Below, piece after piece: positions 4,015-7,319 of a stretch of 64,000 bases of DNA. Both the position numbers and the translations under genes were made by a program. The notes beneath the pieces are model-generated. The model saw only the letters and a program-made list of their open reading frames with translations. It did no database searches and had not been told where the DNA came from. Source of the DNA: a virus (taxonomy: Duplodnaviria; Caudoviricetes); IMG/VR virus record IMGVR_UViG_3300025073_000989; one strand, written 5' to 3'. The stretch's first letter is position 1. Every line of letters starts with the position of its first letter.

Positions 4015-4329
4015 CTAAATTAAAATAAAATTATCTACTATAATCTCTGTCCAATATTTTTTGTCAGATCCTTTACAGTACCTACACTGACCGTCATAAG
4101 AGCTTTCTTCTATATGTCCATGTATCCTAACATAACTATCCTTGGGTAATACGCTTAAAGCTTCCGCCAAATTACCCCAAGCACCAATTTTAATATACTG
4201 AAACAAACCACAATCATCTGGGGACGGTATAGCTAATTTAGCTTTAAACATATAGTTATCATTGTCTAACTCTTTAAAACTAGGATATGTAATCTTGCCC
4301 ATTAAAATAACAAAGTTTTCTCCCCGCAT
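4015..4329 (-). CDS. ssb: Single-stranded DNA-binding protein (OB fold only)
   Basis: NFVILMGKI...AWGNLAE...VRIHGHI...TEIIVDNF matches the bacterial SSB OB pattern; no acidic tail. Confidence 0.75.
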   Translation of the reverse strand: MRGENFVILMGKITYPSFKELDNDNYMFKAKLAIPSPDDCGLFQYIKIGAWGNLAEALSVLPKDSYVRIHGHIEESSYDGQCRYCKGSDKKYWTEIIVDNFILI

Positions 4330-5375
4330 TAAAAATATCCCTCTAAATATGACATTATTTTATCTTTGGATAGGTCTGAAGGATCCATACCACTTTCAGT
4401 TATAAATACTGGAATCAACGGTTTAATATTACCATTTAGTTCATTAAAAGACGCAATAGTCCCTTCTACTCCGGCCTTGTCACCATCAAAAAACAAAACT
4501 ACGCCTTTAGGGGCATTTGCATATAGAAGAATCCTCTGGTACTCTGTTACAAAAGATCCCATAATAGCCACTACGTTTCTTATACCATACTCATACAAGC
4601 GCCATACACTCTTAAAACCTTCAACAACAATAATAGGTTTGTTTGTACAAAACTCCCTAGCCTTGTCTAAGTTATACAAAGTTCTATCTTTATCAAAACC
4701 CGGCGTTAGTTTATATTTAAAACTTGAGTCTTTTATGTCGTTATTATCTCTAGTATCCCTTAAACTATAAGCGCGCAGTTTACCATGTTCGTCTCTTATA
4801 GGTATAATGTCTCTAATTATATTATTATAATCTTTATAGCCACCGGCAACTTCAAAGTAATCCAAAGTAGCTTCTTTAAACCCATCCTTTATAAACATTA
4901 AAGACCTAAAGGGCTTAAATTGGTTAAGCGAATCCTCATTTACTATAGGGGGCTTATTGTCTACTTTTTTAACAATTCTGAGAATGCGATCTGTCTCTCT
5001 ATTCATTTTAAATTTAGAAAACTCTTTACTAAAATCACCTATAGCACCAACTAAACCCTCTAGATAGTGAACAGCCGACATAAAATTAGTTTTATGAACA
5101 GCCATTATTAGGCCTATAACATCATAACTAAAAGATTCATGACATTTATTAGTAAAACAAATCCAGGTACCTGTTTCTTTATTAAACCTAAAAGCTGATT
5201 TATTATCACCACCGTGTATTATACAAGCACATCTAATTTCTTTATTAGAATCCCTTTCTATATCAAAACCAAGAGATACTAGAAGATAGTTATAGTCTAC
5301 TGCCAATTTTAAGCATTCTAGTTTATGCTTAAGTTCTAATCTAGCTTCACTATCAATAGAGTTGTTGATGCTCAT
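4329..5375 (-). CDS. dnaG: DnaG-type DNA primase; the current start codon lies inside the IS right end
   Basis: CHC2 zinc finger (CIIH...CFTNKC), TOPRIM motifs IVVEG and FFDGDKAG. Confidence 0.9.
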   Translation of the reverse strand: MSINNSIDSEARLELKHKLECLKLAVDYNYLLVSLGFDIERDSNKEIRCACIIHGGDNKSAFRFNKETGTWICFTNKCHESFSYDVIGLIMAVHKTNFMSAVHYLEGLVGAIGDFSKEFSKFKMNRETDRILRIVKKVDNKPPIVNEDSLNQFKPFRSLMFIKDGFKEATLDYFEVAGGYKDYNNIIRDIIPIRDEHGKLRAYSLRDTRDNNDIKDSSFKYKLTPGFDKDRTLYNLDKAREFCTNKPIIVVEGFKSVWRLYEYGIRNVVAIMGSFVTEYQRILLYANAPKGVVLFFDGDKAGVEGTIASFNELNGNIKPLIPVFITESGMDPSDLSKDKIMSYLEGYF

Positions 5376-5392
5376 CGGGCACCGCCCGACGA
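5372..5392 (-). repeat. IS right-end hairpin
   Basis: Minus strand TCGTCGGGC-GGT-GCCCGATGA, 9-bp stem with one G:T pair. Confidence 0.85.
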
Positions 5393-5836
5393 TTTCAGTT
5401 TACCTTCCTTCAAAGGTATCTGATTTAGGGGAACGTCAATATGCCCCACGGTCGAAACTCTGTCTTCGGCCGTTTGCTCATAAAGAAACCAAGCATTCGC
5501 GGATATATTAAAAGCCACGTTGGCATCTCTATGATCAAAGTGTCCACAAGAGCACTTGTAGTGCTTACCATTTGGTTTGTTGATGCTTCCACAGCGCGAG
5601 CAAACCTGTCTTGTATAAGCTGGATTTACAAACACTACTGGCACTCCAAGCAAAGTCGCCTTGTATTTGATGAAGGTTTCCAACTGATAAAAAGACCATT
5701 GAGATTTCTGAACATAGCTCTTGGCTTTACCTTTCTTGGAAATCTTTCCCAAATCCTCTAATACTATGGCGGAACGATGTAGTTTGGCGTAATCAACTAT
5801 GGTTTTGGAAACTTTATGGTTAATTGTAGTTTTCAC
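5372..5836 (-). pseudogene. tnpB: Internally deleted TnpB (154 aa from GTG at 5836; the ORF track extends it to 5872)
   Basis: AAGGAG SD 8 nt before GTG; retains IVLEDL (RuvC-II), WSFYQL, VNPAYT, CxxC zinc ribbon and HRDANVAFNI (RuvC-III); lacks WED/REC and RuvC-I. Confidence 0.85.
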
Positions 5837-5887
5837 TGGTGGTGCTCCTTTAGATGTTGTTAAAAAATACATACAGGGTCAAACTGG

Positions 5888-5928
5888 TTGAGACTTACCC
5901 CGAGCACCGCTCTGGGATTGTGTCTCAA
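5888..5928 (-). repeat. IS left-end hairpin
   Basis: Minus strand TTGAGAC-acaat-CCC-a-GAGC-GGT-GCTC-GGG-gtaa-GTCTCAA nested inverted repeat. Confidence 0.85.
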
Positions 5929-7319
5929 AAAAATTGTTCATCATAACTTGAGCTGCCTTCATTGTGAGCCACGCCATCTTTGAAATTAAATAATTGCCTA
6001 TCGGCCGGTACTTCCTTAATAAATAACATCTCCTTAAAAAAATTATAACCAATACCTGTATCTCCAGTACCTCCTCCCCTACGGCTATCTTTTATTACTA
6101 GCTTATACGGACCACACTTTCCGCCGTATGTCTCCAATACAGAAGTTTCCTGAGCCATCCAAAAAGACACTATATCGCCGTATCTAGCTATTCTATCGCT
6201 ATCTGCAATATCACCCTGCCTATTTAATTGGACGGCTGTAACAAATGGTATATTTAAATCACCAGACAGATCTTTAAGTCTAGTAGCAACATCCCCTAAA
6301 ATTTGATATTCTTTTCTTTGTGTATTAATACTTGTAGACTCTGGCTCTTTTATATAATCAAAAAAAGCTGCCTGAATATCTTCCTTAATTTTATATTTCT
6401 TATACAGGGCCGTAATCTTATCAAGCGAATATCCAGGCATGTATTCATGAAAAAACTTTTTACCCTCAAATATTTTTATTGCTTTAGTTATTTTAGTATA
6501 TGTAGCATCATCATAACCACCGTGCTTTATTATACGCTCTGGTATACCGGTTACCATAGAAATAAGACGGTCTCTCCACTCACTAAAAGTCATCTCAGTA
6601 TCAACATATAATAACGGTTTCTCTGAAACCAGCGCTATGTGTGCCGCCATATTGGTAATAAACGCACTTTTACCCATTTTCTTTCTTGCAGCTACTATAA
6701 AAAGAGTACCAGGAATTAAACCATCTATCTGTGTATCTAATATCGGGTAACCTGTAGAAATACCAGACATATCCTTATATTCTTTTCGTCTTTCTTCTAA
6801 ATAGTCAAGTAGTCCGTCACAGACATTTACTGGCTCTTTAATTGATTTAGCTTGTGTAGATAGGCTCATTATATCTGATTGAATCTGGCCTATAAATTGA
6901 CCACTGTCTTTAGACCCCCTACTTAGGTCTTCCAGTATCTCAATACTAGTATTGTTAATTTTTTTAAATAATTGATACTTAGTACTGGCCTCTAATATAT
7001 CATTAACATATCTATCAAAATTCCCTGGGTCTGAATCCATAAAGTTATATAGCAAATCAAGATACTTTGCATCTATCAGTTCTGTAGCTCCTAATGACTC
7101 TAACTGACGCTCAACCTCAAAAAACTCAAAAGATTTAATATCATACTTCTCATTAAGCATTTTAAGAACACCAAATAGTGTCGAATGACGTACATCCAGA
7201 AAATCCTGCTTATTAACCTTAGACACTAAAGTATAATAAAAATCTATATTATTTACTGCTTTGGATAAAACATACCTTTCAGCATATTCCTTACAAAAAT
7301 CTGAAACATTATACTGCAT
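5925..7319 (-). CDS. dnaB: Replicative DNA helicase, DnaB family
   Basis: Walker A AARKKMGKS, YVDTEM, FFDYI, AVQLNR, KDSRRG motifs; N-terminal DnaB domain. Confidence 0.92.
   Translation of the reverse strand: MQYNVSDFCKEYAERYVLSKAVNNIDFYYTLVSKVNKQDFLDVRHSTLFGVLKMLNEKYDIKSFEFFEVERQLESLGATELIDAKYLDLLYNFMDSDPGNFDRYVNDILEASTKYQLFKKINNTSIEILEDLSRGSKDSGQFIGQIQSDIMSLSTQAKSIKEPVNVCDGLLDYLEERRKEYKDMSGISTGYPILDTQIDGLIPGTLFIVAARKKMGKSAFITNMAAHIALVSEKPLLYVDTEMTFSEWRDRLISMVTGIPERIIKHGGYDDATYTKITKAIKIFEGKKFFHEYMPGYSLDKITALYKKYKIKEDIQAAFFDYIKEPESTSINTQRKEYQILGDVATRLKDLSGDLNIPFVTAVQLNRQGDIADSDRIARYGDIVSFWMAQETSVLETYGGKCGPYKLVIKDSRRGGGTGDTGIGYNFFKEMLFIKEVPADRQLFNFKDGVAHNEGSSSYDEQFF

Follow-up and report, generated by a model that had tools for sequence, protein, structure and literature searches.

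An IS200/IS605 remnant at the helicase–primase junction of a large phage: a transposon-derived start codon and the TnpB fragment upstream of it

Between the genes for a DnaB-type helicase and a Toprim primase, a large phage carries a short TnpB-like open reading frame (ORF). This mini-ORF raises the question of why a piece of a transposon gene should stay open directly upstream of a replication gene, and of where the start codon of that gene comes from. The stretch analysed (the window) comprises 64,000 nucleotides (nt) of the virus record IMGVR_UViG_3300025073_000989 (Duplodnaviria; Caudoviricetes), and belongs to a phage record of 268,764 nt that is rated complete. A sequence-only reading of the locus had proposed an in-frame deletion derivative of tnpB, dead as a nuclease and retained as a ribosome-delivery leader for the primase. 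That reading overlooked that the primase ATG and the helicase stop are element DNA. The origin of the primase start codon is a more interesting point than the mini-ORF itself.

The best explanation as a whole, which is given a probability of about 0.85, begins with an IS200/IS605 element with divergent tnpA and tnpB genes. It inserted, without target duplication, just after ATGAA, the presumed start of the primase gene (ATG AAC ...) inside its overlap with the 3´ end of the helicase gene. The right end of the element (a GC-rich hairpin, an ATGA stop/start overlap and AGY ATC AA) gives the interrupted gene an in-frame start, leaving Ser-Ile after the Met as the only scar, and the left end provides a nearby stop for the helicase. 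A later deletion of 928 nt fused an accidental Shine–Dalgarno (SD) sequence and GTG, antisense to tnpA, in frame to TnpB codons 217–366. Finally, with the primase AUG locked in the hairpin and no free SD, ribosomes ending at the mini-ORF TGA would most likely melt this structure and reinitiate at the primase start. The anatomy and the origin of the element are the part of this explanation held with the highest confidence.

Element ends and the start of the primase gene

The helicase, mini-ORF and primase genes follow one another in this order on the minus strand (Table 1). The right boundary of the element is defined by comparison with its relatives, as the homology between elements ends exactly after ATCAA in more than 13 unrelated flanks, with the family consensus ATG AGY ATC AA. 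On the other side, the left end follows the motif [A/T]TGAA in 8 contexts; a second comparison found this in 13 of 15. The left and right subterminal hairpins (5920..5898 and 5392..5372) have a GGT loop in common. Moreover, the GC content reaches 0.42–0.45 across the mini-ORF region, against 0.29–0.35 in the phage DNA on both sides.

The position of these ends has consequences for both neighbouring genes. The first 12 nt of the left end (5936..5925) encode the last three codons of the helicase (Q F F) and its stop, while the last 11 nt of the element supply the primase start codon, the Ser and Ile codons and two bases of codon 4. By these alignments, the primase ATG and the helicase stop are assigned to transposon DNA, and the ATG at 5941..5939, within the flanking motif, would be the ancestral primase start codon. 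The MSI start of the window primase is absent from all 119 primase relatives compared. If the element is removed in silico, the primase begins M(M)NNSIDSE and its start is overlapped by the helicase gene over 17–20 nt; the two genes overlap by 26 nt in an element-free relative whose primase is 47% identical (L004).

Empty and occupied sites can be observed directly at other loci of the family. In the empty locus L027 the gene body directly follows ATGAA, whereas a 480-nt element lies between them in the occupied locus L019; the right flanks are 99.3% identical, the left ones about 90%, and a target duplication is absent. The L019 host protein (727 amino acids (aa), starting MSIKIKG) falls into the same 90% cluster as 725-aa proteins that start MKIKG. 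Two more pairs show the Ser-Ile difference (210 against 208 aa; MSIKINTY against MKIYTY), and in all three cases the element-free allele is shorter by exactly two residues.

The same arrangement is found across the family. A scan of viral contigs together with a metagenome scan gave 99 distinct flanks, 75 of them with extended right-end homology, and 67 of the latter, with enough flanking sequence, constitute the strict set. In this set a host ORF of at least 80 codons occupies the frame of the donated ATG in 31 of 67 cases, and the other two frames in 1 and 0 cases, respectively (p=3.5e-14). In the unfiltered 99 contexts, the donated-ATG frame encodes 40 host proteins of at least 80 residues, which belong to 39 unrelated families. 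Among them are an epimerase, a DnaJ and a CysS whose domains begin at residue 5 or later (at 5 in Epimerase and DnaJ). Chance matches to the right-end pattern had been discarded from the strict set: a mycobacterial ArsA (L104), a Streptomyces sequence (L142) and 22 others without extended homology. A single genuine copy, in a bacterial metagenome-assembled genome (L141), was found among species-representative genomes (185,579 species). Other family copies are reduced to about 50–480 nt.

Origin of the TnpB fragment

The mini-ORF described by the sequence-only reading is real. Its stop codon lies at 5374..5372, its GTG at 5836 is preceded by AAGGAG (5850..5845) at a spacing of 8, and its sole Pfam match is Cas12f1-like_TNB, the zinc-ribbon domain of TnpB/Cas12f (3.2e-20). 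The ORF coordinates likewise confirm that its TGA overlaps the primase ATG (5375..5373) as ATGA. However, this overlap is not peculiar to the remnant in the window, as had been supposed, but is present at the right end of every family member.

Full-length relatives were found by scanning viral contigs with the sequence of the mini-ORF 3´ end. The reference element, L020, has 1524 nt including the flanking motif and encodes, on opposite strands, a 132-aa Y1 transposase (Pfam Y1_Tnp, 8.9e-31) and a 366-aa TnpB. Residues 5–154 of the mini-ORF correspond to residues 217–366 of this TnpB with 79% identity, and residues 1–4 remain outside the alignment. The RuvC-II Glu, the zinc ribbon with its cysteines and the RuvC-III Asp are retained, whereas TnpB residues 1–216, with WED/REC and the RuvC-I aspartate, are missing, so that 59% of tnpB has been lost. 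As the sequence-only reading had held, the product would thus not be an active nuclease, because the lost residues include both WED/REC and the RuvC-I Asp.

At the DNA level, window positions 5824..5365 align to the last 460 nt of the L020 element (81% identity). The adjoining positions 5875..5824 align to the antisense of the last 20 or so codons of tnpA, where a HMMER match to TnpA residues 106–132 (79% identity) is also found. The AAGGAG, the GTG and the first four codons (MKTT) are therefore the antisense of the conserved TnpA C-terminus, and the same antisense reading is present in all full elements. By the alignments, a 928-nt deletion spanned two genes, removing most of tnpA and the first 216 tnpB codons. 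The remaining tail is the only trace of tnpA across the whole phage record.

These alignments bear on the origin that had first been proposed, in which an in-frame deletion within tnpB joined a TnpB start (MKTTI) to the segment behind RuvC-I through an 8-nt microhomology. The breakpoint does lie near the site named for it, at window position 5824 or so. Against this origin, the sequence beyond the breakpoint aligns to the 3´ end of tnpA and not to tnpB, TnpB relatives have quite different starts, and the breakpoints in the nearest full-length relatives (L020, L010 and L024) share at most 1–2 nt. The tnpA alignment and the mapping of the residues to TnpB 217–366 refute it, and practically no credence is left to it.

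It has also been considered that the 154-aa fragment, a zinc ribbon with half a RuvC fold, could have a function of its own, for example as a guide-RNA sponge or as a poison of the incoming TnpB of related elements. The retained cysteines and the RuvC-II and RuvC-III residues are in keeping with such a role. By contrast, the break points of decayed copies vary widely, with 14 to 221 codons left, so that there is no conserved mini-protein, and all changes between variants are non-synonymous. No activity is known for half a RuvC fold that lacks WED/REC. A conserved family of mini-TnpBs of about 150 aa was likewise rejected, as the short proteins in the databases are fragments that gene callers produced from copies that are split, cut or deleted in other ways, and the deletion end points vary among loci. 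Taken together, a function of its own is considered very improbable.

In the phage collection, a DNA search with the helicase-to-primase stretch found no relative, and a protein search gave only distant TnpB matches, of at most 41% identity.

Table 1. Features of the helicase–primase locus (window coordinates).
Feature	Position	Strand	Description
Helicase	5925..7319	-	DnaB-type, 464 aa; tail and stop codon from element left end (ORF table, domain search, left-end alignment)
Primase	4329..5375	-	Toprim, 348 aa, N-terminus M-S-I-N
Mini-ORF	5372..5836 (GTG) or from 5872 (ATG)	-	154 codons from GTG, 166 from ATG
Whole element	5365..5936	-	572 nt, non-autonomous IS200/IS605, both ends kept
Transposon-adjacent motif ATGAA	5937..5941	-	inside helicase 3´ end; ATG at 5941..5939
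Left end	5898..5936	-	subterminal hairpin 5920..5898, fold -19.6 kcal/mol
tnpA 3´ remnant	5824..5891	+	approximately last 20 codons and stop; blastn to L020 element positions 85-136
Deletion junction	5824..5825	-	928 nt gone relative to L020 (element positions 137-1064)
Omega RNA-like scaffold (putative)	5365..5473	-	four stems over tnpB 3´ end, all four kept in window copy
Right-end hairpin	5372..5392	-	9 base pairs, loop GGU; pairs with primase AUG
Last 11 nt of element	5365..5375	-	ATG AGC ATC AA
First 20 nt past right end	5345..5364	-	predicted TnpB guide position, from known IS200/IS605 layout and mapped boundary

Translation of the remnant and of the primase

The earlier suggestion that a hairpin hides the primase start is borne out by the predicted fold. 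All three bases of the AUG are paired in a 9-base-pair hairpin of -14.9 kcal/mol, with an unpaired probability of at most 0.012, and of the SD-like GGCGGUG only the GGU loop is left free. This right-end hairpin is conserved across the family.

If ribosomes were delivered to the host gene by an upstream frame, decayed copies in front of a host gene would be expected to keep such a frame. In the strict set, decayed copies were scored for the presence or absence of a start-codon ORF ending at ATGA, with or without a dependent in-frame host gene. Such an ORF, of 14–221 codons, is present in 15 of 15 copies before a host gene and in 2 of 5 without one (Fisher p=0.009). Furthermore, five independent deletions (L042, L068, L116, L023 and L097) have joined the ATGAA of the host itself, in frame, to the last part of the tnpB reading frame, giving leaders of approximately 13–55 codons, with an SD-like motif preceding ATGAA in at least L023 and L068. 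The remnants at L023, L097 and L116 consist of about 50 nt, made up of the host SD-ATGAA, the last 9–12 tnpB codons and the right-end hairpin, and their leader ORFs, of 13–14 codons, terminate at the host-gene ATGA.

Within the window, the old primase ATG (5941) opens a frame of 20 codons whose stop (5881..5879) lies six bases before the ATG at 5872, and a search between the helicase and the mini-ORF found no terminator-like site. From this arrangement, a relay of ribosomes from the helicase to the leader, the mini-ORF and the primase is conceivable.

The proposal that the mini-ORF delivers ribosomes has thus gained comparative support, and the coupling itself is still deduced from sequence; that translation of the mini-ORF is coupled to that of the primase is judged slightly better than an even chance. 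Coupling through restart would account for the persistence of an open, start-bearing frame here and in other decayed copies.

Several observations weigh against the best explanation as a whole. At the window locus itself, the empty site is a reconstruction and not an observation, because no close element-free relative of the phage was found; the best primase is 60% identical, and the 90% cluster of the window primase has a single member. In the window lineage, the Ser of the ´TSQ´ motif of TnpB, nearly invariant otherwise, has also been replaced. In the only variant, L005, the mini-ORF has three changes, all of them non-synonymous, and the left end two more, with none in the 1395 nt of the helicase; purifying selection on the protein encoded by the mini-ORF is not evident. 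Every other copy sampled is identical, and the persistence of the frame could therefore simply mean youth. Chance alone would have put one in three such fusions in frame. In the unfiltered set, moreover, a tnpB-frame ORF with a start codon is lacking upstream of two host genes (L045 and L048). Lastly, the length of the open frame upstream of ATGA does not differ significantly between copies with and without a host gene (p=0.22 and p=0.095), and only the presence/absence comparison is significant.

Most of these observations would be expected if the mini-ORF were a neutral wreck, open only since the deletion was recent and by chance in frame, with the primase initiating directly at the donated AUG through breathing of the hairpin or the help of an RNA helicase. 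In a population that is otherwise invariant there would have been no time for decay. However, the AUG is paired in more than 98% of the predicted ensemble and no SD is free. The retention of an ORF ending at ATGA in 15 of 15 copies before a host gene, compared with 2 of 5 others, and the five independent in-frame fusions of a host SD-ATGAA to the last tnpB codons also speak against neutral decay. A neutral wreck is therefore regarded as rather unlikely, and termination and restart at the ATGA overlap are preferred as the route to the primase start.

Guide-RNA-like scaffold and relation to known elements

The last 110 nt or so of the element have the look expected of a TnpB guide-RNA scaffold, and a putative structure of four stems is predicted there. 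In an RNAalifold prediction from 16 family members, compensatory changes support 20 of the 35 pairs. An Rfam scan of 5200..6100 at E-values up to 1 returned a lone match to PtaRNA1 (E=0.34), which is unrelated, and no introns. A guide drawn from the first 20 nt past the right end would match the element-free primase allele. A cognate TnpB was sought in the phage and not found, so any use of the scaffold would need a partner in trans. A second TnpB-like frame, of 416 codons (G000:C1:267812-268570; loci L002 and L140), adjoins the end of the phage record; it is only 26–36% identical to the TnpB family of the window and belongs to a different lineage.

Some element-free alleles of host genes differ from the target motif. 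The alleles P0047, P0066, P0060 and P0091, of the host genes of L019, L045, L115 and L049, start with ME, MR, MT or MQ, not with MK. These second codons, which destroy ATGAA, could be escape variants, or they could mark sites that were never targeted.

The remnant might then be kept as a guide-RNA gene, its scaffold and the adjoining primase sequence programming a cognate TnpB in trans, which the host or another phage in the same cell would supply, to cut primase alleles that lack the element; in mixed infections this would serve as a weapon or would help homing. The preserved four-stem scaffold with its compensatory changes, a layout that sets the guide on the first primase bases beside ATGAA, and the element-free alleles with motif-destroying second codons are consistent with this possibility. 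On the other hand, the phage provides only the distant TnpB-like frame, no further copy of the window right end was found in the same genome, and the scaffold overlaps the hairpin and the ATG stretch, so that its retention needs no added reason. A guide-RNA gene is improbable on this evidence as the reason for which the remnant persists, and the delivery of ribosomes to the primase is preferred.

A wider reading can be offered for the lineage, tentatively and at somewhat less than even odds. The right end of this IS605 lineage would act as a portable translation-start cassette for the colonisation of the starts of essential genes in phages with gene-dense genomes, the host gene coming to depend on the translation of tnpB or of a leader. 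The element could then be lost only by precise excision and could decay only to a short leader ORF. Intact copies would cut element-free alleles at the start codon by means of TnpB and its guide RNA. Homing from one co-infecting phage to another would be driven in this way, and escapes at the second codon (ME, MR, MT or MQ instead of MK) would be selected.

The features of the family place the element within IS200/IS605: a Y1 (HUH) transposase in L020 (of which the window keeps about 20 codons), insertion at a fixed motif without duplication, and subterminal hairpins. The window copy keeps both ends and has no functional transposase in the element, as in PATEs. The window ORF has neither the complete RuvC Asp-Glu-Asp triad nor the WED/REC of an active TnpB; the N-terminal 216 residues are gone, unlike in TldRs, and there is no group I intron of the kind that defines IStrons. 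The element is thus an IS200/IS605 element, and the window copy is a non-autonomous derivative of the PATE type in which the fragment of TnpB is dead.

IS608 and ISDra2 encode a Y1 TnpA and a TnpB with a right-end guide RNA, and move by ´peel and paste´ single-strand transposition. The full-length relatives resemble them in the Y1 transposase and TnpB, the subterminal hairpins, the insertion 3´ of a 5-nt motif without duplication and the predicted structured RNA region over the tnpB 3´ end; a right end finishing in TCAA is shared with IS608. However, the motif of the window family, ATGAA (sometimes TTGAA), contains a start codon, and at its right end the tnpB stop overlaps an in-frame ATG that serves as replacement, so that a gene hit at its start codon stays readable with a two-residue scar. 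A limited literature search, which included TnpB, TAM (transposon-adjacent motif) and ATGAA as terms, found no description of a right end that regenerates a start codon, and the absence of such a description is not thereby proven.

Other comparisons are more partial. Like PATEs and MITE-like IS200/IS605 derivatives, the remnant is short (572 nt) and has both ends and hairpins but no transposase. In contrast to PATEs, it codes for part of two essential genes (the helicase stop and the primase start), and an imprecise deletion cannot remove it. IStrons, which combine IS605/IS607 with a group I intron, are likewise transposons that make their own gene insertion harmless; there the mRNA is repaired by splicing, whereas in the window family start-codon donation repairs translation. 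The free-standing homing endonucleases seg/mob of T4 provide another parallel, being selfish nuclease cassettes between essential replication genes of a large phage, with the cassette-free allele as the expected target, but the window family has an RNA-guided nuclease moved by a Y1 transposase, and in the window the nuclease is destroyed. Finally, TldRs are TnpB derivatives without nuclease activity that also occur in phages; they keep the WED/REC half that binds RNA and DNA and lose RuvC function, while the fragment in the window is the opposite half.

Besides splicing (introns, IStrons and inteins) and the targeting of safe sites, start-codon replacement at the level of translation would be a third route to harmless insertion into essential genes. 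It would explain why dozens of unrelated proteins from phages and bacteria begin with MSI(K/N), and short ´TnpB-like´ ORFs upstream of MSI proteins would be annotated as remnants rather than as new mini-nucleases. Transposon debris could in this way turn into an obligatory expression signal of a replication gene. As tools, the family may offer TnpBs that are compact (about 366 aa) and for which an ATGAA/TTGAA motif is predicted, and a natural test bed for termination–reinitiation through a stable hairpin.

Further observations concern the family and the locus. Two TnpB lineages that are 25% identical (L025, L059, L069, L099, L038 and L132 against L020, L010, L024 and L012) have the same left end of about 84 nt, the same 34-nt right end and the same C-terminal residues, while their guide-RNA regions cannot be aligned, which suggests that nuclease modules have been swapped between identical transposase substrates. 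Five contigs (L035, L038, L049, L061 and L090) carry two family right ends each, about 100 nt apart in L049, and point to repeated or tandem insertion in one neighbourhood. In the window, a 106-codon ORF on the plus strand (5441..5761), antisense to the mini-ORF, has no support as a gene and most likely results from the higher GC content of the transposon.

Some copies lie among other selfish elements. The host gene of L019 and L027 (725/727 aa; L019:3065-5245) is glycosyltransferase-like and split by a LAGLIDADG-type intein; genes near it also have inteins and HNH domains, and selfish elements are dense in this region. At L008 (474-3768), a decayed element is flanked by two homing-endonuclease genes of the GIY-YIG/NUMOD3 type; the hairpin at its right end has degenerated, yet the donated ATG still begins a gene of 308 aa.

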